From Candidatus Wolfebacteria bacterium GW2011_GWA1_44_24 (GTDB taxonomy: Bacteria; Patescibacteriota; Minisyncoccia; UBA6257; UBA9933), in assembly GCA_001001115.1 (NCBI GenBank), contig LCIO01000001.1, positions 71,501 through 135,500 on the forward strand: 64,000 nucleotides of DNA, read 5' to 3'. Positions 3,548 through 30,911 of the stretch are shown here, in pieces. Numbering within the stretch: the first letter of the stretch is position 1; each line of letters begins with the position of its first letter. The translations under genes and the position numbers were made by a program. The notes under the pieces are model-generated. The model was not told the origin of the DNA. It worked only from the letters and a program-made list of their open reading frames with translations, and searched no databases.

Positions 3548-3653
3548 ACCCTACTTTCCCAGCCGCCGAAGCAGCAAGTATCATCGGGACCGTACGCTTT
3601 CACTTCTCTGTTCGGAATGGGAAGAGGTGGGACACATACGGTTAAATCACCGG
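3541..3653 (-). rRNA. rrf: 5S rRNA
   Basis: The reverse complement reads CCGGTGATT...GTCCCACCTCTTCCCATTCCGAACAGAGAAGTGAAAGCGTACGGTCCCGATGATACTTG...GCCGG. This matches the conserved 5S core (CCGAAC.CAGAAGTGAAAC..) and the terminal helix I pairing. Confidence 0.8.
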
Positions 3654-3711
3654 CTTATTTATTTATTCAATTTATTAAATCCTGAACCGAATTACGCGCT
3701 CGGCGCTCCGG

Positions 3712-6688
<2,977 letters not shown>

Positions 6689-10700: not shown

Positions 10701-11372
10701 TTATGGAATAATCAGCGCGAACTCCCCCTTTCCTTTTTTGCCGCTGAAATAATTTTTTACTTGTTCAACGCTTCCCCAAAAACGCTCCTCGTGGATTTTG
10801 GTCAACTCTTTGACAATAAAAATCTTGCAATCTTTGCCGAAAATCTCCGCTAAATTATCAAGGGTTTTAATTAAGCGATGGGGCGATTCATATAAGATAA
10901 TCGGCCTGATTCCATTATCTTTTAAATTTTGAAAAAATTTCAGCCGTTTTTTCTTTGACGGCGGATAACCGGCAAAAACAAATTGATTGGCAAAAATTCC
11001 GGCGATTGATAAAGCCGCCACCGTAGCCGACGGTCCAGGAATCGTCATGATTTTCGCTTCCGGCAATTCCTTGTTAATATAAGCCACTAAAAGCGCGCCG
11101 GGGTCGGAAATCGCCGGCGTGCCCGCGTCGGAAACCAAAGCGACGCTCTCCCCTTTTTGAAGCCGAGAATTAATTTCTCGATAAGTTTTTTCCGGATAAT
11201 ATTCATTATACCGCTCAAGAGGCGTATGAATATCGTAATGCGAAAGTAGTTTTTTGGTGATTCGCGTGTCTTCGGCCAAAATCAAATCAACGCTTTTTAA
11301 TATCTCCAAAGCTCGCAAAGTAATATCTTTTAAGTTGCCTATTGGAGTGGCAACGATATATAAAGCGCCCAT
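10701..11372 (-). CDS. rsmI: 16S rRNA (cytidine1402-2'-O)-methyltransferase
   Basis: Tetrapyrrole-methylase fold with N-terminus MGALYIVATPIGNLKDITLRALEILKSVDLILAEDTR, typical of RsmI. Confidence 0.75.
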   Translation of the reverse strand: MGALYIVATPIGNLKDITLRALEILKSVDLILAEDTRITKKLLSHYDIHTPLERYNEYYPEKTYREINSRLQKGESVALVSDAGTPAISDPGALLVAYINKELPEAKIMTIPGPSATVAALSIAGIFANQFVFAGYPPSKKKRLKFFQNLKDNGIRPIILYESPHRLIKTLDNLAEIFGKDCKIFIVKELTKIHEERFWGSVEQVKNYFSGKKGKGEFALIIP

Positions 11373-22881: not shown

Positions 22882-24000
22882 TTATTTTTTATCTTTTAAT
22901 TTTTCCGGCAAAAAACTGTCTTTGGAGTATTTTTCGTACTCCTTGCCGTACCCCAATTCTTTCATTAACTTAGTTTCAGGATTGCGCAAATTTAAAGGAA
23001 TAGGCAGGTTGCCAAATTTTTTAACATCCGCCATCGCCTCCATATACGCCTCATAGGCGCTCCTGTCTTTTTTACATTGACACAAATATGCGACTCCATG
23101 CGCCAAGTTAATTCCGCATTCCGGCAAGCCGATTATCTCCACCGCCCTAAAAACATCATTTGCCACCATAAGAGCCGCCGGCTGAGCCAAACCGACATCT
23201 TCGCTGGCAAAAATAACCATCCGTCGGGCAATAAATTTCGGGTCCTCTCCGGCGTCAATCATCCGCGCCAAATAATATAAAGCCGCGTCCGATTGGCCGG
23301 CTCTCATGCTTTTAATAAAAGCTGAAATTGTATTGTAATGCTCCTCTCCTTTTTTATCATAACGCAGAAACTTTGATTGCAAAGCATTCTTCAAATTATC
23401 AACCGTGATTTTTCCGTATAAGCTATTTGTATTTTCGAGTATCGTAATCGCCTGTCTTGCGTCGCCATTTGCCATATTTATCAGCCAATCGCGCGTTTCT
23501 TTGTCCATCTTAAAACCGACGCGCTTTATAATTTTTGCCATCTCTTCGTCTGATAAAGAGTTTAAAATAAAAACGCGGCAACGAGAAAGAAGCGGAGAAA
23601 TAACTTCAAAACTGGGATTCTCCGTGGTAGCGCCGATTAAAGTAATTTTACCGTTTTCCGCAAAAGGCAATAAATAATCCTGTTGGGCTTTATTAAAGCG
23701 GTGGATTTCATCCAAAAATAAAACCTTTGGCTTGCCCCAAGAATTTTCTTCAATAGCGCGTTTAATGTCTTCTTTGCCGGCCGAAACCGCGGAAAGCTCG
23801 TAGATTTGAGCGTCAAGAGCGCTCGCGTATATTTTCGCCAAAGTTGTTTTTCCGCTCCCCGGCGGACCCCACAAAATAAACGAAAAAAGGTGTTTGTTTT
23901 TAACGGCAATATTCAACGGCTTATTTTCCCCAACCAAATGCTCCTGTCCGATAAATTCTTTTAGAGTTTTAGGCCTGATTTTTGACGCCAATGGTTCCAT
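22882..24000 (-). CDS. rarA: replication-associated recombination protein A (AAA+ ATPase)
   Basis: FIGQEHLVGENKPL, Walker A GPPGSGKTTLA, Walker B VLFLDEIHRFNK, and a MgsA-type C-terminal domain. Confidence 0.8.
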   Translation of the reverse strand: MEPLASKIRPKTLKEFIGQEHLVGENKPLNIAVKNKHLFSFILWGPPGSGKTTLAKIYASALDAQIYELSAVSAGKEDIKRAIEENSWGKPKVLFLDEIHRFNKAQQDYLLPFAENGKITLIGATTENPSFEVISPLLSRCRVFILNSLSDEEMAKIIKRVGFKMDKETRDWLINMANGDARQAITILENTNSLYGKITVDNLKNALQSKFLRYDKKGEEHYNTISAFIKSMRAGQSDAALYYLARMIDAGEDPKFIARRMVIFASEDVGLAQPAALMVANDVFRAVEIIGLPECGINLAHGVAYLCQCKKDRSAYEAYMEAMADVKKFGNLPIPLNLRNPETKLMKELGYGKEYEKYSKDSFLPEKLKDKK

Positions 24001-24307
24001 ACGCCTTTATACTACTATCAAAACTCCTCTTTATCAAAGAAAAACTTGTGGTTCGCACTATTGTTTGAAAAAACTCCCGTTTGGAAGTTTTGCGCTCGAA
24101 CCTGTGAAAAAGCCCACCAATAAAGAGAAAAGTGCCGCTTTTCGCGATATTCATCCTATTTGGCTCCACACCCTGAACGAAATCCGAACGCATTTTCGGG
24201 AAACCCCCGACGAATGAAGCCGCCCCGCCGCCGCTCGCTAACGCTCGCCAGCCAGCAAAAAAGTTTTCTCTGCATTTCTGATTTTGCACGCGCCGGATTT
24301 TTTCTTC

Positions 24308-24488
24308 TAAAAGGAAAAGAAAACTTTTTTGCTGGGTTCTGCTCTCAACGAGCAGGCGGCGGGGCTGGCCTCTTTTGTATTCGCTCGGACGACTCGGCAT
24401 TACTCCCGACGACTCGGCATTACTCCCCCCCCCCAACCCCCTCCTGCCGAGCCATCCTCGCTTCGGCAAAAGGATTTTTTGGCGGCGG
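24308..24488. repeat. left arm of a GC-rich inverted repeat pair (about 181 nt)
   Basis: It is about 95 percent identical to the reverse complement of 29168-29356. It contains a 20 nt tandem duplication (GACGACTCGGCATTACTCCC x2) and a C(10-11) homopolymer, and it is embedded in an otherwise AT-rich genome. Confidence 0.85.
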
Positions 24489-24512
24489 ATAGTGTCCTGT
24501 GGATAATTCCCC

Positions 24513-24540
24513 CTTGATTGAACTTATACGTTTTGTATAA
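24513..24540 (+). promoter_or_regulatory. sigma70-like promoter TTGATT-16-TATAAT facing into the cassette
   Basis: TTGATT at about 24513-18 and TATAAT at about 24535-40, immediately inside the left inverted repeat, reading toward the structured leader and the XRE-RT-MTase genes. Confidence 0.4.
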
Positions 24541-24544
24541 TACT

Positions 24545-25060
24545 AAGTAGGACGGTTGCAGTTTAAAAATCAATTCGCGCGAGATCGGTTATCACTTCGA
24601 AGATTCTAGATCATTCTCTGTTATTGAGAATATCTGACCTCTCCTGTTTTGACAAGGAGTGGACCTTGCCCCGACATGTATATACATGTGTGCCCTATGC
24701 TTCATGTAATCCTTGAGGGACAAGTTAAGTCAAGTTGCTTTAGGCGTTGAGCTTAATGCTTCACTTGCACAGGGACTGCCATAACCTCACGGTTACTGGT
24801 ATTACCGGAAGGTTTTTATCGAAAACTGATAACCGTGAGGAGTTGGTGTGTTCCGCGTAGTAAATTAAAGGTCAATTATTAACCGTCCCCTTTAACTAAA
24901 AACACATGGAGCAAACAATGAAACACCAAAATCCAATTGCTGAATTGTGCCTTCCGTATAAAGGGGCGATTATCATTTATGAAGTGGTTGAGGTGCTTAC
25001 GGATAATTTTACAAATTATCCGTATCCTCAAAGACCTTCTGCGGTAATCGCCCCTTAGTC
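24545..25060 (+). ncRNA. about 520 nt highly structured leader / candidate ncRNA upstream of the XRE-RT operon (possible retron-like msr/msd region)
   Basis: No long ORF. It has a perfect 16 nt palindrome ACATGTATATACATGT (24673-24688). A long hairpin has an 11 bp perfect stem CCTCACGGTTA / TAACCGTGAGG (24784-24839) enclosing a nested GTTTT-TATCG-AAAAC hairpin, plus several further stem-loops. It lies between the promoter and the XRE start. Confidence 0.3.
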
Positions 25061-25067
25061 GTTCTAT

Positions 25068-25394
25068 ATGTATACATTTCCTGATTTAATCAAAAAAATT
25101 AGAGACGAAGCTGGTTTAACTCAAGCCGAATTTGCAAAAGCACTCGGCGTATCTGCTGTGCTTATTGCAATGGTAGAAACTGGTCAAAAAGAAGTTTCAA
25201 AAAATTTGCTTATTAAAATTGCTGAATTATTAAATGTTCATCCTTCATCAATAACTCCGTTTCTGTTTATAGATAGAGAGAAATTCAGTAAAGACCCTTC
25301 AGCAATAGATAAAAAATTTATTGAATGGGGGGAGAAAATGCAAACGCACTTAATAAAAGATCGGGCGAAACTCCTCAAAAAATATGCAAACTAG
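25068..25394 (+). CDS. XRE-family HTH transcriptional regulator
   Basis: 108 aa with the HTH_3 motif LTQAEFAKALGVSAVLIAMVETGQKEVSKNLLIKIAELLNV. The start codon sits within the palindrome ATGTATACAT, and the 3' end overlaps the RT start by 11 nt. Confidence 0.7.
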   Translation: MYTFPDLIKKIRDEAGLTQAEFAKALGVSAVLIAMVETGQKEVSKNLLIKIAELLNVHPSSITPFLFIDREKFSKDPSAIDKKFIEWGEKMQTHLIKDRAKLLKKYAN

Positions 25395-26310
25395 TAGATA
25401 CCCAAAACTTTACATACGGAGCAAGAACGAACTGGCAAAACATTTAAGCCATAGTAAGTTTCCGAAAGAGGAGGCGTTGGCTTTAATAAACGACACTCTT
25501 AAAAACTTTAACAAATATTGGAAAGATAACGAATATAAATCAGAACCAGAAAAAGAAAAATTTGTCAGAAGTGCGAAGGGCACACCACTAGGGAGGCTTT
25601 TAGATAACATTAACAAGTCTGTTCTTGCCCCACATGATAAAATGCTCCCCGTTTTTATATTTGGCGGTGTGAAAAATATGAACCATGCGAAAGCGGCAAA
25701 GTATTTACTCGGGAGAAAGCGAAAACGAACCTCTCTAAAATTAGATATAGCTCGCTTCTTTGAACAAATAAGTGAAGAAAGAGTTTATCACTTCCTCCAT
25801 GACAAGTGCGCGTGTAGTAAAAGGGCCGCAAAATTACTTGCAGGTTTTTGTTGTGTACCTAAGGGGCACAAGGGATCCGGTTTTGAATATAAAACGATAG
25901 CTCGCGGATTTGCCACATCCTCACGTCTTGCCATCTGGTGCAATTTAGACACTTTTATCAGGCTGGATCGTCTTGTTCAAAAACGACTTAAAGGGAAAGA
26001 CGCTCGTATCGCTATTTATGTTGATGATATTGGAATAACTGCTAGCAGAGTATCAAAAGAAGAAATGAAAAAGTTATCTGACGAAATTACAAAGCTTCTA
26101 CTAAATGCAGACAGAAACCAAAGATTGCCGATAAATGAGAAAAAGACAAAAATATCTTCCCACGAGGAGGGTATAGAACATCTTGGCTTGCGGTTATACA
26201 GAAATAGATTGTCTGTTGGCGCAAAAACAAAATCAAAAATAGATAGGGCAAGGAATAAAAGTGAACGCAAGCCACTGATTAGATACAAGCATTATGTTGA
26301 GAAAATCTGA
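25384..26310 (+). CDS. reverse transcriptase, retron-like (308 aa)
   Basis: RT motifs LKLDIARFFEQI (motif 2, compare Ec86 LNIDLEDFFPSL), TIARGFATSSRLAIWCNL (motif 4), AIYVDDIGITA (YxDD motif 5), LPINEKKTKI (motif 6, compare Ec86 LVINSKKTCI) and EHLGLRL (motif 7 position). Its size fits retron RTs. Confidence 0.8.
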   Translation: MQTSRYPKLYIRSKNELAKHLSHSKFPKEEALALINDTLKNFNKYWKDNEYKSEPEKEKFVRSAKGTPLGRLLDNINKSVLAPHDKMLPVFIFGGVKNMNHAKAAKYLLGRKRKRTSLKLDIARFFEQISEERVYHFLHDKCACSKRAAKLLAGFCCVPKGHKGSGFEYKTIARGFATSSRLAIWCNLDTFIRLDRLVQKRLKGKDARIAIYVDDIGITASRVSKEEMKKLSDEITKLLLNADRNQRLPINEKKTKISSHEEGIEHLGLRLYRNRLSVGAKTKSKIDRARNKSERKPLIRYKHYVEKI

Positions 26311-26318
26311 TTGCTTGT

Positions 26319-27956
26319 ATGGAAAACTTTGTGTATACTAAAGTTAGCGAGAAAATTATGACCCCCGGTTACGAAAACGATTTAGAGAACGAATATTCAA
26401 AAACTGTCGACCTAGAGCATAGGCGTGCTTTTGGGCAATTCTTTACCCCCTTTAAAATTGCAAAGTTTATGTCGGAGTGGGTTTTAGATAGTGAAAAACA
26501 GGAAATGGAGGTTTTAGATCCAGCCGCGGGCTTTGGGATTTTCCCTCGCGTAATGTCTTCCTTTAATAAGCGAAAAAAAATTAACTTTGACCTCTGGGAG
26601 ATAGACGAAAACATCGCAAAAAAACTAAAAGATGTTATACAAGAAATTAAAATGGAGGCGGTGATACATCAAGCAGATTTTCTAAAAAATGGCTGGGACA
26701 AAAAATATGACGGTATTATTGCAAATCCGCCATATTTCAAACACCACTACATAAATGAAAAAGAGAAAGTTTTTCAGGAAATTTGTCTGCGAACATACTT
26801 TAGATTTAGTATTCAAACTAATATTTACTGCTGGTTTTTAATTAAAGCTATAAATTTACTTGATAAAGGGGGGAGGTTAGCATTTATTGTGCCAAGTGAA
26901 TTTTTTAATGCGAACTATGGTGAAAAAGTTAAAGAGTATCTAAAACAATGTGGTGTTGTCCTTCATTTTATCAGCGTTAATTTTGAGGAAAATGTTTTTG
27001 ATAATGCACTGACTACATCAGTAATTATTCTTGCCGAGAAAAGTCCACAGAAGCATGAAAGTATAAATTTTTACACAGTGCATAATGTGAAAGAACTCGT
27101 TTCTGTAAAAGATTTTCTCAACAAACACCCAAAAAAGACCTTCAAGATTGCTGACCTAAATCCTAAAACAAAATGGAGAAATTATTTTAATGGCGATAAA
27201 GATATATTCTCGAAAGAACTTGTCTCACTTTCGACATTCGGCAAATTTTCTAGGGGCATAGCAACGGGGGCAAATCATTATTTCACACTTTCCTTACCAG
27301 AAGTTGAGGAGCATAAAATATCAAAAAAATGCCTGCGCCCATGTATCACAAAAGCCGTGCACGCGAAAGATATTTACTTTAGTGACGAGCATTTTGATAA
27401 ACTCAGGGAACAAGAAAAGAAAGTTTATTTATTTGATGGGGAAAAATCACAAGAACAAAGTTGTAAAAACTATATTGCACTTGGGGAAAAACAGGGTGTC
27501 AGTCAAAAATATCTTACAAAAAATCGAGATCCGTGGTATGCGCTAGAAAAAAGAGATGTTGCCCCGATTTGGGTAACGGTTTTTGGGAGAAGTGGTTTAA
27601 AATTTGTATGGAACGATTCTTCCTGTATTAACCTAACTTGTTTTCATGCTTTTTATCCTACCGAATTAGGAAAAAACTACCTAGATATATTATTTATTTA
27701 TCTGTATTCAAATACGGCCCAAAAATTATTTGACAGAGAAAAAAGAGAATATGGCGGGGGGCTTGGAAAATTTGAGCCAAACGATCTTAACAAAGCTTTT
27801 GTTGTCGATTTTAGATTGCTCGACAAGAAACAAATCTCTATTTTAGCGAACCTCCAAAGAGATTTTCTCAAATCAGAAAAAAACGAAAGAGAACAATTTT
27901 TGAAAAAAGCTGATGATATTTTTAAACCTCTTGCTCAATCAGTTTTTTCAAAATAG
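26319..27956 (+). CDS. N6-adenine DNA methyltransferase, gamma class (M.TaqI/Eco57I-like) with C-terminal target-recognition domain
   Basis: Motif X FGQFFTP, motif I VLDPAAGFGIF, motif IV IIANPPYF (NPPY), then a ~300 aa variable domain. It starts 8 nt after the RT stop. Confidence 0.85.
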   Translation: MENFVYTKVSEKIMTPGYENDLENEYSKTVDLEHRRAFGQFFTPFKIAKFMSEWVLDSEKQEMEVLDPAAGFGIFPRVMSSFNKRKKINFDLWEIDENIAKKLKDVIQEIKMEAVIHQADFLKNGWDKKYDGIIANPPYFKHHYINEKEKVFQEICLRTYFRFSIQTNIYCWFLIKAINLLDKGGRLAFIVPSEFFNANYGEKVKEYLKQCGVVLHFISVNFEENVFDNALTTSVIILAEKSPQKHESINFYTVHNVKELVSVKDFLNKHPKKTFKIADLNPKTKWRNYFNGDKDIFSKELVSLSTFGKFSRGIATGANHYFTLSLPEVEEHKISKKCLRPCITKAVHAKDIYFSDEHFDKLREQEKKVYLFDGEKSQEQSCKNYIALGEKQGVSQKYLTKNRDPWYALEKRDVAPIWVTVFGRSGLKFVWNDSSCINLTCFHAFYPTELGKNYLDILFIYLYSNTAQKLFDREKREYGGGLGKFEPNDLNKAFVVDFRLLDKKQISILANLQRDFLKSEKNEREQFLKKADDIFKPLAQSVFSK

Positions 27957-28818
27957 CTTCATCAAGTTTTGCCTTGCCACCCTCAAAGCTTACGTGATGA
28001 AGAAGCCTCCCTCCGGCAAGCTCTTTTCTTATACCCAAAAGATTCGGCTCGCCTATATTTTCGCTTATTAAATGACCATTGTTTAAATACATGTGAATGG
28101 TCTCCTTGTACTGATTTTTAGGATTCTTTTCAATAACAAAAGCTAGTGCGTCATTTTTTAAACCGACAACCTTTTTATTTTTGATACCCTTTTCTGAAAT
28201 ATCTGTGTCTCTCAATAATGACAAAATTTCGCTGAACGATATCACATAGATTGCATCAAAAAATACTTGAACGTAAAAATGCGGAACATTAAAAGTATCA
28301 ATCCATTTTAGTACGATCAAAAGATCCTCCACTTTTGGAGTGAAACTCAAAAACGGACGTTCTTTTTTGGCGATAAATTTTTTTGTTAGATATGCGCTAG
28401 ATCGCACTTCAAATCCCGCTGTCGCTTGCGGAACAATTTTTGCAAGTTCTCCATGAGATAATTTACTGATATCGTCACCCCATTCTTTTTTGTAAATTTT
28501 GGGGTCAAATAGTAAAACATCAGGCCTCTTACCGATTGCGTCCAGCTCATCTTGATACTGATTATAAAAGTCTTTGAAGTCGGGGTCTCCAGCAATAATC
28601 TTGTCTGATTTCCCATATCTAACGGGGACTAAATCAAGGTTAGATGCTTTAAGGGAACGAAAGAAAAGCATCTCCGCCCAATCTCCTTGTTCGTTGTGTG
28701 TAAGAAAATCAGAAAATGCTTGCGTGGGTGGTGTTCCTCTCTTGCGTTTCGCTCCCAGATTAACAATATTTGGCGAAATATCCTTCGCAATTTTATGTAT
28801 TTTGTCCTTATAACTCAT
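27922..28818 (-). CDS. putative type II restriction endonuclease (cognate of the methyltransferase)
   Basis: 298 aa with no strong family match. A possible PD...(D/E)xK-like core is PDVLLFD ... GFEVRSS. It is translationally coupled (ATGA overlap) to the upstream C-protein gene, and its 3' end overlaps the convergent MTase by 35 nt. Confidence 0.45.
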   Translation of the reverse strand: MSYKDKIHKIAKDISPNIVNLGAKRKRGTPPTQAFSDFLTHNEQGDWAEMLFFRSLKASNLDLVPVRYGKSDKIIAGDPDFKDFYNQYQDELDAIGKRPDVLLFDPKIYKKEWGDDISKLSHGELAKIVPQATAGFEVRSSAYLTKKFIAKKERPFLSFTPKVEDLLIVLKWIDTFNVPHFYVQVFFDAIYVISFSEILSLLRDTDISEKGIKNKKVVGLKNDALAFVIEKNPKNQYKETIHMYLNNGHLISENIGEPNLLGIRKELAGGRLLHHVSFEGGKAKLDEAILKKLIEQEV

Positions 28819-29054
28819 ATTCCTTTGAAAAAATCAGAGATGCTGATTTTTAGCGCTTTAGAAACTTTTTCGATATTTTCAAGCGTTATGTTCTTTTCTG
28901 CTCGTTCAATCATGCCGATATATGTCCGGTGAACACCGGCGCGTGAGGCTAATTCTTCCTGTGATAAACCTAACCTCGCCCGCTCCTCGCGGACTTTTTT
29001 ACCAAATTTGATAAGGATTTCTCTTTTCATAGTTGATAACTGTAGTATATCCAC
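28815..29054 (-). CDS. controller (C) protein, XRE-family HTH
   Basis: 79 aa; LSQEELASRAGVHRTYIGMIERAEKNITLENIEKVSKAL HTH. It sits immediately upstream of, and overlaps, the putative REase gene, the classic C-R arrangement. Confidence 0.65.
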   Translation of the reverse strand: MDILQLSTMKREILIKFGKKVREERARLGLSQEELASRAGVHRTYIGMIERAEKNITLENIEKVSKALKISISDFFKGI

Positions 29055-29167
29055 TTGCTAACTTTGGTGCTACATACTATAGTTAGCGTATGGATTTATT
29101 GATTTTAGGGAGTTCCTACAACTTGCCCGCGCACGGGAGCGGTGGGGCAAGGGCAAGAATAAATAAT

Positions 29168-29356
29168 TCCGCCGCCAAAAAATCCTTTTGCCGAAGCGAG
29201 GACGGCTCGGCAGGAGGGGGTTGGGGGGGAGTAATGCCGAGTCGTCCGAGCGAATACAAAAGAGGCCAGCCCCGCCGCCTGCTCGTTGAGAGCAGAACCC
29301 AGCAAAAAAGTTTTCTTTTCCGCAGAACCCAGCAAAAAAGTTTTCTTTTCCTTTTT
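29168..29356. repeat. right arm of the GC-rich inverted repeat pair (about 189 nt)
   Basis: Reverse-complement match to 24308-24488. It carries a 30 nt tandem duplication (GCAGAACCCAGCAAAAAAGTTTTCTTTTCC x2) and G-runs (GGGGGTTGGGGGGGA). Confidence 0.85.
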
Positions 29357-29424
29357 CCTTCGACTTTGCTTAGGATGGTGAATTTGCCGAACCACAAGTT
29401 TTTCTTTGGCGGCAAATTCCATTT

Positions 29425-30174
29425 CTAAAGATTAAACAACAACTTGATTATTAACGCTATAACAACCACTATGAGTAACCCTCTAAGCCACTTATCACCA
29501 AACTTTAGTGCAGTGTGTGCGCCGATATACGAGCCCACCATTGAAGTAATGGCCAATGGCACCGCAAGAGAAAAATCGATGTTGTCTCTTCTTACAAAAA
29601 CAAAAAGTGCCGCAATAAGCATAATGGCGGTAACAAAAACAGAATCAGCAATTCCTTGCATTAAGTCTCTACCAAGCAACAAGACAAATAAAAATATCAA
29701 AAATGTTGCGACCCCTACCGAAAAGAACCCGCCGTATATACCCAAGATGAAACATAAAATACCTGCAATAATAAAATCTTTTCTATTGAGTTTTTTGTTT
29801 TCAATCTCAAGGCCAGCAGAAGGTTTTTTGAAAATCAAAAAGATTAAGCCGAAAAAGAAAATAGCAACAATTTTAGATAAAATCTCTTTGTTAATATCAA
29901 GGACAAGATTAGCACCGATAAAAGCACCTATGAGCGAGATTATGGAGAGAGGTAAAACAATTCTAAAATTTATTTTATGGTTCTTCCAATATTTGAAGAC
30001 CGCAACGACATTTATCAACCACCCCGAAAGAATATTGGTACCAATGGCTAATGTGGGTGTTAGCCCAAGAAAAAGTAGAGCTGGCAACGTAATGAGTGCT
30101 CCGGCACCAACTTGTGCCCCTACAAATCCCCCCACCAAACCGGCAAGAGATATAAAAATTAAACTAAAATCCAT
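29425..30174 (-). CDS. TauE/SafE (DUF81) family sulfite/anion exporter
   Basis: 249 aa, 7-8 TM segments; N-terminal LAGLVGGFVGAQVGAGALITLPALLFLGL typical of the family. Confidence 0.7.
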   Translation of the reverse strand: MDFSLIFISLAGLVGGFVGAQVGAGALITLPALLFLGLTPTLAIGTNILSGWLINVVAVFKYWKNHKINFRIVLPLSIISLIGAFIGANLVLDINKEILSKIVAIFFFGLIFLIFKKPSAGLEIENKKLNRKDFIIAGILCFILGIYGGFFSVGVATFLIFLFVLLLGRDLMQGIADSVFVTAIMLIAALFVFVRRDNIDFSLAVPLAITSMVGSYIGAHTALKFGDKWLRGLLIVVVIALIIKLLFNL

Positions 30175-30306
30175 TTATGAAAAATTTTCTTTTACTTTTA
30201 ATTTTATTAAAAACGAAACCGCCAATTGATTTTTTCGCCCAAAATTCCGTTCAATTTGGTCGCCGAGCGAAGCGAGGCGACCTACAAATCGTTGACTTTT
30301 CCTTAC

Positions 30307-30381
30307 TGGCTCCGCGGGTAGGATTCGAACCTACGACCAATCGCTTAACAGGCGACCGCTCTACCACTGAGCTACCGCGGA
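30307..30381 (-). tRNA. tRNA-Asn (anticodon GTT), CCA encoded
   Basis: Acceptor TCCGCGG/CCGCGGA, D arm GCTC-AGTGGTA-GAGC, anticodon stem GTCGC/GCGAT with loop CTGTTAA, and T arm GTAGG-TTCGAAT-CCTAC. Confidence 0.85.
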
Positions 30382-30416
30382 ATATCATTACAATTTAACA
30401 AAAAATAAACGGATTT

Positions 30417-30911
30417 TCAATTCTTGGGCGGGTAAACAGCCATCAACCATCTCAAAATCAAATCGCTCGGTTTTCTGATTTTTTCGCCCGGGAAATCAAA
30501 CCAAACCCTTTCAAATGTTTTCAAATCCATTTTTCTGACTTTGCCGATTTCTGGATCGGCCAGAAAAATATGATTTTTCGTCGCGGCAACAATTGCGGAA
30601 TAATGGCCTTCGTCTTCCGAAAACCAATCCACTATAACCGGTATTTTCTTTTTCAAATAAAATTTAATGTCTTCCGAAGACGCGCCGGATTTGATAACAA
30701 ATTTCAATTTTATTTTTTTTAATCCTGTTCTGAATCCTCTTTCATCTGTCCCCTTTTCTCGGGTGGTCTTCAAAATTTCAGCCAGATAATTCTCGCCATA
30801 ATTCAATCCGTAAAAATCCAAAACCATTTTCAAAGCCACCGGCCCGCAAAAACCCGACTTTGTCTGTTTCATCGGTTTAATTTTCAATATCGTTGTCTTC
30901 ATCAATTTCAC
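30417..30911 (-). CDS. peptidase C39-like (papain-fold) domain protein
   Basis: KSGFCGPVALKMVLDFYG (catalytic Cys context) and a downstream GHY (His), as in bacteriocin-processing C39 peptidase domains. Confidence 0.45.
   Translation of the reverse strand: MKLMKTTILKIKPMKQTKSGFCGPVALKMVLDFYGLNYGENYLAEILKTTREKGTDERGFRTGLKKIKLKFVIKSGASSEDIKFYLKKKIPVIVDWFSEDEGHYSAIVAATKNHIFLADPEIGKVRKMDLKTFERVWFDFPGEKIRKPSDLILRWLMAVYPPKN

Follow-up and report, generated by a model that had tools for sequence, protein, structure and literature searches.

What does a compact reverse transcriptase do in a bacterium of the candidate phyla radiation (CPR), and which of its neighbors does it work with? The question is raised by a reverse transcriptase (RT) gene in a 64,000-nucleotide stretch of contig LCIO01000001.1 of Candidatus Wolfebacteria bacterium GW2011_GWA1_44_24, hereafter the window, in which the RT gene is followed by a methyltransferase gene. 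An earlier note on this DNA recognized a retron-like motif set in the 308-residue protein and took its altered motif 7 and the methyltransferase neighbor as signs of a distinct, possibly undescribed RT lineage. We find that the locus as a whole is best explained as a type VI-like retron, a bacterial anti-phage system, with the RT as its polymerase; the form seen here is divergent and confined to Patescibacteria/CPR. We put the probability of this reading at about 0.78.

The RT open reading frame (ORF) is real, and its translation contains all the motif strings quoted in the earlier note, including LKLDIARFFEQI, ARGFATSSRLAIWCNL, IYVDDIGI, LPINEKKTKI and EHLGLRL. Pfam RVT_1 covers residues 69–270 (E = 2.6e-12; 47.4 bits, gathering cut-off 29.6). 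In an alignment of 30 homologues, the motif-A aspartate D121, F125, E127, V213, D214 and D215 of the YVDD motif, and G268 are invariant. Because the catalytic aspartates are kept and invariant, the protein looks like an intact, catalytically competent reverse transcriptase. A database search returned 445 RT homologues; the best 120 of the 445 are 53–100% identical to the query and nearly all about 300–335 aa long, and the named hosts among them are Patescibacteria/CPR lineages (Paceibacterota, Moraniibacteriota, Yonath-, Harrison-, Magasanik-, Jorgensen- and Saccharibacteria). The RT length is 300–335 aa throughout the family, with no maturase or endonuclease extension, in agreement with the earlier argument against a group II intron RT.

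The predicted fold points to retrons. An AlphaFold2 model built from the family alignment has a predicted local distance difference test score of 94.5 and a predicted template modeling (TM) score of 0.89. In a Foldseek search of the model against the PDB, the top 15 matches are all retron RTs (TM 0.63–0.72), among them Ec86 (TM 0.68–0.72), Eco8, Eco2, retron I-A, Eco7 and Ec83; structures of RTs from diversity-generating retroelements (DGR), G2L4 and group II introns rank below these 15. A PDB sequence search with the family profile gave only a weak match to a group II maturase (6me0, E = 5.8e-7). The retron relationship is visible in the PDB because the fold was searched, the sequence search being too weak to reveal it. 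With its retron-type fold, its intact catalytic YxDD and no added domains, the RT is the compact retron-type enzyme that the earlier note had supposed.

Profile searches placed the protein more precisely. The best match is an RT family and not a non-RT one: the PADLOC model RT_VI (E = 1.1e-27, 95 bits, nearly full length), followed by RT_IV at 61 bits, and RT_VI is the best model in 30 of 30 family members tested. Other PADLOC and NCBIfam models score lower (RT_UG17 44 bits, Drt3a 39–46 bits, AbiA 33–35 bits, TIGR04416 34 bits), and Cas-associated and group II models also fall far below RT_VI. We then searched 1.84 billion (1.84e9) cluster representatives exhaustively with the RT, using phmmer. 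The family is discrete, with 61 clusters at E ≤ 1e-30, and the ranking contains a gap, family members lying at E ≤ 1e-20 and the next proteins beginning at E = 2e-9. The 10 nearest proteins outside the family are all canonical type VI RTs, scoring 189–299 bits to RT_VI. Type VI retron RTs constitute RT clade 3 of Mestre, sister to types IV/V (PMC7736814), and the present family would lie either inside type VI or as its sister. The suggestion of a distinct, possibly undescribed lineage thus stands in its first part, given the gap that sets the clade apart, but not in its second: the uniform RT_VI match, the ten nearest neighbors and the HTH_VI match of the partner gene described below suggest that the family is an isolated offshoot of a described kind and not one outside the known kinds. 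A tblastn search of the RT against plasmids gave distant matches only (23–29% identity); two of them, on alphaproteobacterial plasmids of Microvirga (L062) and Acetobacter (L063), became our canonical comparators.

The partner gene leads to the same type. Type VI retrons are recognized by a Cro/C1 helix-turn-helix (HTH) protein (cluster cl2_1, 91–110 aa) encoded directly upstream of the RT gene or overlapping it (PMC7736814), and the window locus encodes just such a protein, whose gene overlaps the start of the RT gene by 11 nt. The protein matches Pfam HTH_3 (E = 3.1e-15), its best PADLOC model is HTH_VI (E = 4e-14), and its identity to the HTH protein of the canonical type VI locus L062 is 30%. 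We compared about 55 related loci, from both genomes and metagenomes, and essentially all of them keep the HTH–RT pair. The HTH protein is probably a repressor and/or an antitoxin.

The third hallmark is the RNA. Published type VI retrons have the layout small protein (SP), HTH, RT, and the toxin ORF forms part of a structured RNA (10.1101/2025.10.22.683967; 10.64898/2026.04.27.721009), and the comparator L062 has the SP–HTH–RT order too. The published systems use a "hybrid RNA" of roughly 470 nt (10.1101/2025.10.22.683967; 10.64898/2026.04.27.721009), and in Retron-Sen3 the SP gene lies within long-range RNA pairings that are conserved (10.64898/2026.04.27.721009). In the window, the 580-nt stretch upstream of the HTH gene is non-coding and carries a conserved sigma-70-like promoter with an internal palindrome, TATAC-N5-GTATA. 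Each of the 47 loci with enough upstream sequence has this palindrome 500–660 nt ahead of its HTH gene, and we infer that it is probably the operator of the HTH protein. The RNA that starts here would be about 510 nt long; the region 24490–25070 folds at z = −5.0 against shuffles, and the conserved hairpins of its 5′ domain show compensatory changes. In an Rfam scan of 23500–30500 (E ≤ 10), the sole real match was tRNA-Asn; neither a retron msr nor a group II intron appeared, nor any other family of relevance. MAFFT and RNAalifold applied to the whole 5′ domain recovered two local helices only, its center being too variable to align, and we therefore sought long-range pairs by complementarity searches locus by locus, with cross-locus controls.

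Four long-range helices emerged. Helix H1 joins the predicted 5′ end of the RNA to a strand just ahead of the small ORFs; its own-locus partners pair more strongly than cross-locus partners (Mann–Whitney p = 1.8e-6, 40 loci), with many compensatory variants, and it resembles the a1/a2 closing helix of classical retrons. A G is common 2–3 nt after H1, in the context (A/U)G(C/U). Within the 5′ domain lies a conserved three-way hairpin whose stem pairs covary, probably the template (msd) hairpin, and its CGGAAGG (24806–24812) is the 5′ partner of helix PK1. The other strand of PK1 sits in a riboregulator segment: at least 7.5 contiguous complementary base pairs are present in 36 of 36 loci, in at least 11 sequence variants, and own-locus complementarity exceeds cross-locus complementarity with p = 1e-18. 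Immediately beside it, the same segment holds a strand of PK2, which pairs with the region near the RNA 5′ end in at least 8 covarying sequence variants across loci (own versus cross-locus p = 3.5e-12). Helix H3 encloses the smaller of two overlapping ORFs, ORF-B, with the Shine–Dalgarno (SD)-like stretch and the AUG of that ORF inside it. In a 35-sequence alignment, 80% of H3 cells are paired, against 30–50% with slid partners, and 104 cells carry double changes, against at most 33; the observed values were reached by 0 of 500 shuffles. The locus therefore has the parts of a type VI hybrid RNA, namely an msr–msd-like domain joined to a putative toxin ORF, long-range pairing between the two and a sequestered start.

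The probable toxin ORF is not the one that gene callers report. At the position of the SP gene they annotate ORF-A, and a small ORF is found at that place in all loci. The ORF-A frame is open in 38 of 38 distinct loci, against 0 of 38 for the third frame; given the ORF-B peptide, the expected chance of an open frame A is about 0.27 per locus. The amino-acid sequence of ORF-A is nevertheless not conserved and shows no codon periodicity. Its sole conserved stretch (AELCLPY/ELCLPY) coincides with the PK1 and PK2 strands and is conserved at the nucleotide level because of these pairings. ORF-A thus appears to act as a leader, kept open and not conserved as a protein. The HTH ATG sits 4–20 nt past the ORF-A stop across loci and has no SD-like stretch of its own; this short gap and the missing SD point to translational coupling from ORF-A to HTH to RT, so that translation of the latter two is probably coupled to that of ORF-A.

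ORF-B, in the +1 frame of ORF-A, is strongly conserved as a peptide. An ATG-started ORF-B of 21–31 aa occurs in 38 distinct loci, with the consensus ..LRI..IIL.IIRI..DL and with one clear exception. In L008 (Paceibacterota; about 3590–3660) an in-frame TGA interrupts ORF-B while ORF-A is open; the toxin may have been inactivated there, or the TGA may be a recoded stop or an error of sequencing. The automated ATG criterion also failed in L021, where the ORF has no ATG, starts with GTG and encodes VLAKWLRKVLRIVKIIAQIIKIIRDILG, and in L003, which nevertheless encodes the ATG-started MKLMRLLRIISAIIHILKDLL in the ORF-B frame. The entropies of ORF-B at codon positions 1, 2 and 3 are 1.30, 0.75 and 1.59, a pattern that reads as the signature of a translated gene. 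Within the clade of the window (seven distinct sequences), the variable ORF-B columns are synonymous 7/7 in frame B and 0/7 in frame A. The predicted peptides form amphipathic helices of cationic character: their net charge averages +3.6 and their hydrophobic moment 0.71, with 0.85 for the window peptide. The ORF-B product is probably the toxic effector. In the stretch 3–20 nt upstream of the ORF-B ATG, the duplex with the anti-SD averages −6.9 kcal/mol and reaches −6 kcal/mol or lower in 76% of loci. An SD-like stretch precedes the first ATG of only about 18–21% of the long ORFs in the window (39 ORFs of at least 200 aa), and this rare use of SD sequences in the genome weakens arguments from SD presence or absence.

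In L062 and L063, the corresponding hydrophobic helix is the in-frame C-terminus of a 58–61-aa SP. The resemblance of ORF-B to canonical small proteins (KWVTQVIYIALAIIKFLRE, LRTIIAVSRMIYEILRFIQRQ versus KWLRCLRIILQIIRILKDLLR) is compositional and positional only, and neither the canonical small proteins nor ORF-A or ORF-B matched anything in Pfam or PADLOC. A programmed +1 frameshift from ORF-A into ORF-B is unlikely, since nearly all loci retain the ORF-B ATG; it is also disfavored by the upstream stretch, which varies in sequence and length and offers no slippery or stop context. The nested frame is unmentioned in the type VI preprints on Vpa2 and Sen3 (10.1101/2025.10.22.683967; 10.64898/2026.04.27.721009), and the RNA wiring of the CPR loci, together with this two-frame arrangement of leader and toxin, is not described there. 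In practice this calls for caution: gene callers pick up the non-conserved leader here and overlook the conserved peptide. In one further record (L001, 3891–3990), the HTH gene and ORF-B appear to be lost; the record holds a run of N there, either a masked stretch or a scaffold gap. We had considered L001 as a natural deletion of both, which would have fitted toxin/antitoxin logic, and dropped it for that reason.

These parts suggest how the retron might work. The parts, their conservation and their pairings come from sequence comparison; the steps that connect them are drawn by analogy with Retron-Vpa2 and Retron-Sen3. The HTH protein would repress its own promoter and, together with the RT, bind the RNA. 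The RT would prime on a 2′-OH near H1 and copy the adjacent template, including the CGGAAGG hairpin. At rest, the leader would be bound to the template hairpin by PK1 and to the RNA 5′ end by PK2, and H3 would occlude the ORF-B start, so that an uninfected cell makes no peptide. On infection, complementary DNA (cDNA) would accumulate and the CGGAAGG strand would be captured in an RNA:DNA hybrid; alternatively, cDNA carrying CCTTCCG would compete for CGGAAGG in trans. Either way, the leader would be freed, ribosomes would traverse ORF-A and melt H3, and ORF-B would be translated. Its peptide would then damage the membrane and kill or arrest the cell, aborting the infection. A Sen3-like neutralization of the peptide by the HTH protein after translation is equally possible. 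Taken in full, this would amount to a Patescibacteria-wide clade in which the annotated SP is a leader, the +1-frame peptide of 21–31 aa is the effector, and reverse transcription or its cDNA is the switch acting through H3, PK1 and PK2 in a hok/mok-like manner, and in which the retron of the window lineage travels with exchangeable restriction–modification (RM) modules in an invertible, recombinase-associated cassette. We hold this fuller picture tentatively, at somewhat short of even odds.

Several observations weigh against a type VI assignment or against the mechanism just outlined. The window RT shares 23–25% identity with the L062 and L063 RTs and has three insertions without counterpart in them. 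The VTG of retron motif 7 is absent, as the earlier note had correctly observed: the family has E[HIYF][LV]G, with only the Gly kept, and the window has EHLGL where canonical L062 and L063 have EITGV. The RT_VI score is 95 bits for the window RT against 189–301 for canonical type VI proteins, and the HTH_VI score is 51 bits against 113–124. Retron-Cle1 of Levybacteria, the one assayed CPR retron that is classified as type VI, yielded no RT-DNA in E. coli; a comparison of its published predicted non-coding RNA (census supplement) with all loci gave nothing beyond chance. On the RNA side, H1 and PK2 cross each other and so would be either alternative states or a pseudoknot. The G-rich run ahead of ORF-B may serve as a helix strand and nothing more, and multicopy single-stranded DNA, the priming G and the template boundary are not demonstrable from sequence. 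An hhalign comparison of the ORF-B profile with the L062 and L063 small proteins was not significant. For Vpa2-like systems, conserved direct repeats of 7 nt, shared by the msd and riboregulator loops, have been proposed (10.1101/2025.10.22.683967). We found no positionally consistent direct repeats of at least 7 nt in 38 loci, which have complementary elements instead; the repeats are a proposal for one sub-lineage and not a formal type VI criterion. The derepression step given above is our own extrapolation, because the elements are complementary as RNA and are not direct repeats of the Vpa2 kind.

Table 1. Positions of the features of the probable retron and of its cassette in the window
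Feature	Position	Strand	Sequence	Remarks
Left inverted-repeat region	24035..24489	.		Outer 21-nt repeat 24035–24055; inner arm 24313–24489
Sigma-70-like promoter	24514..24541	+	TTGATT, 16-nt spacer, TATAAT	Promoter scan 10/12
Palindrome	24525–24539	+	TATAC-N5-GTATA	Within promoter; putative HTH operator
5′ structured non-coding domain (msr–msd-like)	24549..24905	+		H1, conserved stem-loops, variable center
H1 5′ strand	24549..24557	+	AGGACGGTT	Predicted RNA 5′ end; pairs with 24881–24889
PK2 5′ partner	24571..24578	+	CAATTCGC	Near RNA 5′ end; pairs with 24939–24947
Three-way hairpin	24785..24840	+	Stem CCTCACGGTTA / TAACCGTGAGG	Carries the PK1 5′ partner; probable template hairpin
H1 3′ strand	24881..24889	+	AACCGTCCC	17–25 nt upstream of ORF-A ATG
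ORF-A	24906..25058	+		50 codons; alternative start with GGAG upstream at 24918; ends 9 nt before HTH ATG
Riboregulator segment	24939..24956	+	GCTGAATTG + GCCTTCCG	Inside ORF-A
PK2 strand	24939–24947	+	GCTGAATTG	Partner 24571–24578
PK1 strand	24949–24956	+	GCCTTCCG	Partner 24806–24813
H3 5′ strand	24960..24974	+	AAAGGGGCGATTATC	G-rich, SD-like; ends 4 nt before ORF-B ATG
ORF-B	24979..25047	+	MKWLRCLRIILQIIRILKDLLR	22 aa; +1 frame of ORF-A
H3 3′ strand	25043..25056	+	GGTAATCGCCCCTT	From ORF-B stop codon into ORF-A stop codon
HTH protein	25068..25394	+		108 aa, Cro/C1 type; Pfam HTH_3, PADLOC HTH_VI
RT	25384..26310	+		308 aa, ATG start; feature under study
Eco57I-like N6 methyltransferase	26319–27956	+		Pfam/PADLOC
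AccI-family endonuclease	27922–28818	-		RE_AccI, E = 3e-81
Controller (C) protein	28815–29054	-		Pfam/PADLOC
Right inverted-repeat region	29168..29408	.		Inner arm 29168–29321 plus 30-nt tandem copy; outer 21-nt repeat 29388–29408

The methyltransferase downstream of the RT belongs to a module of its own. The genes at 26319..29054 form a complete, ordinary AccI-family type II unit of restriction, modification and controller genes (R-M-C), and only 8 nt separate the RT stop from the start of the methyltransferase gene. Only the closest relatives (at least 84% identity; L042, L043, L046, L047 and L064–67) have the AccI module linked to the RT. In L044 (1933–4442), and also in L045, L048, L049 and L002, whose RTs are 84–86% identical, an N6_N4 methyltransferase and a BsoBI-family endonuclease stand in its place, whereas the controller protein (83–89% identical) and the right inverted repeat are kept; RM modules are thus swapped within one cassette. 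About 40 more distant family loci lack the AccI module beside the RT, whereas every one of them has the HTH gene, the small ORFs and the RNA. Since the module is swapped or absent in this way, the methyltransferase is a cassette neighbor and not a retron component. The earlier suggestion that it marks a new lineage therefore falls, and the pattern points to an RT that is functionally unrelated to it.

The retron and the RM module together make up a 5.3-kb cassette bounded by inverted repeats that are 98–100% complementary, with inner arms of about 155–177 nt. In L064, an 80-kb contig from another sample, the flanks are 100% identical to those of the window and the segment 24053–29408 is inverted; the cassette there lies between rarA/mgsA and tauE, with inverted-repeat regions at 5620–5730 and 10930–11020. 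L064 also has a unique junction filler of 27–30 nt, which argues against an assembler artefact, and a longer outer repeat of about 56 nt. The L042 cassette is 98–99% identical to that of the window and has a different left flank, which encodes a large serine recombinase (7–1005, - strand). A large serine recombinase (Resolvase, Recombinase and Zn-ribbon domains) also lies beside the cassette in L044 (5006–6598), L055/L061 (6351–7814), L020 (362–919, - strand) and L050 (7527–7709), a homologue is found beside the cassette of L045 too, and none is present in the 64-kb window. The cassette looks like a mobile and/or invertible defense module, and its company suggests that it is mobile or is inverted by the large serine recombinase.

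Some further features of the repeats and their surroundings were recorded. Contigs of close relatives break inside the inner repeat. The arms hold tandem duplications, two copies of the 20-nt GACGACTCGGCATTACTCCC in the left arm only (24388–24427) and two copies of the 30-nt GCAGAACCCAGCAAAAAAGTTTTCTTTTCC in the right arm only (29292–29351), as well as a poly-C/G tract, and ORFs called across the arms (e.g., 23969–24469 and 29090–29428) are repeat artefacts. A tRNA-Asn(GTT) gene at 30307–30381 (- strand), one of 13 tRNA genes in the window, is some 900 nt away from the cassette's right end; such genes are a common landmark for integrated elements.

How well do other explanations account for the same locus? 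The close packing of the RT, M, R and C genes in one cassette bounded by inverted repeats, with the 8-nt gap between RT and M and an arrangement kept in L042, L043, L046, L047 and L064–67, would suit a new RT system functionally coupled to the adjacent methyltransferase or RM module, in which, for example, DNA made by the RT might be methylated or might guide restriction. We consider this very unlikely, because the RM genes form a complete and ordinary AccI-type R-M-C unit that is replaced by a BsoBI module in equally close relatives and is absent near the RT in the some 40 distant loci that always retain the HTH gene, the small ORFs and the RNA. Just as little credit is due to the idea that the RT comes from another defense class, of the unknown group, abortive infection or defense-associated RT kinds (UG/Abi/DRT; DRT3 and UG17 would be examples), with no more than a resemblance to retron RTs. 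Its weak matches to RT_UG17 (44 bits), Drt3a (39–46) and AbiA (33–35) stay far below the 95 bits of RT_VI, its nearest neighbors are all RT_VI proteins, 15 retron RTs outrank any DRT in the fold search, and the partner gene and RNA layout are type VI-like. Least probable of all, to the point where we would be surprised to see it hold, is a degenerate RT of a group II intron or a DGR. TIGR04416 does match, at 34 bits against a cut-off of 300, as do 6me0 in the sequence search and DGR structures at fold ranks 16–17; but the protein, with 308 aa, has no X/maturase or endonuclease (En) domain, 23500–30500 contains no Rfam intron and no template/variable repeat pair, only the inverted repeats of the cassette, the neighbors are HTH and RM genes with no accessory Avd gene of a DGR among them, and retron matches are better at every level.

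A closer competitor keeps the type VI kind of retron and changes the toxin, which would be the 50-aa product of ORF-A, the conservation of the +1 frame then following from RNA structure alone. In its favor, ORF-A is the ORF that gene callers report, is similar in size to the 55-aa Vpa2 small protein and is always open, and the region is under RNA-structure selection of the sort reported for canonical small-protein genes (10.64898/2026.04.27.721009). The codon pattern speaks against it. Frame A has no coding periodicity, and its third positions are the least variable within the ORF-B span; substitutions in the closest clade are synonymous 0/7 in frame A against 7/7 in frame B; and in frame B the ATG, the stop, the length (21–31 aa) and the I/L/V–R/K amphipathic pattern persist despite widely differing nucleotides. 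Pairing in the RNA alone does not predict three-base periodicity. We regard an ORF-A toxin as unlikely, though less so than the preceding alternatives, and proceed with a type VI-like retron whose probable effector is the ORF-B peptide.

Type VI is the least understood class of retrons, and cDNA that turns a toxin on, not off, has been described only in 2025–26 and only in Proteobacteria. A divergent type VI-like version would be common in CPR/Patescibacteria, which have tiny genomes and few known defense systems. The RNA wiring can be read from covariation, and the four helices and the two-frame arrangement yield predictions that mutations can test and that bear on how reverse transcription is coupled to effector translation. 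If the mechanistic reading is wrong, the locus is merely another retron beside another restriction system.

Among known systems, the type VI retrons Vpa2 and Sen3 are the closest. They share with the window locus the order of structured RNA, small ORF, Cro/C1 HTH and RT, with HTH–RT overlap, and the window RT has its best profile and its nearest neighbors in type VI; in both, the known or probable toxin ORF lies in the structured transcript with a sequestered start and long-range pairings to the template domain, and the effector is, or in the window is predicted to be, a small hydrophobic or amphipathic helix. Unlike them, the window family stands at 23–25% RT identity, has three insertions and HLG instead of ITG, and is found in Patescibacteria only. 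Canonical L062 and L063 carry the helix in frame in a 58–61-aa SP, whereas the window family has a 21–31-aa peptide in the +1 frame of a leader. The SP of Vpa2 has 55 aa and 7-nt direct repeats are proposed there, whereas the template hairpin and riboregulator of the window are complementary as RNA. The solved RTs of Ec86/Eco1 (7v9u, 7v9x), Eco2, Eco7, Eco8, Ec83 and retron I-A agree with the window RT over the full-length fold (TM 0.63–0.72), at about 310 aa and without extra domains; identity is only 16–17%, and the Ec86 multicopy single-stranded DNA holds a toxin in check. No solved type VI structure is among the Foldseek matches. AccI-family type II RM systems with a C protein are matched by three neighbor genes in the window, as a cassette neighbor and not as a retron component.

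A functional analogy, without sequence similarity, can be drawn with hok/mok/sok, the type I toxin–antitoxin system of plasmid R1. There, the ORF of a small membrane-active toxin overlaps a longer leader ORF in another frame, the toxin start is buried in long-range RNA structure, and translation of the leader probably opens it. The window locus has no antisense RNA, and the release proposed for it is by reverse transcription, or by its cDNA, together with the HTH protein. What the two would have in common is the two-frame overlap of leader and toxin, the buried start and its opening by translation of the leader.

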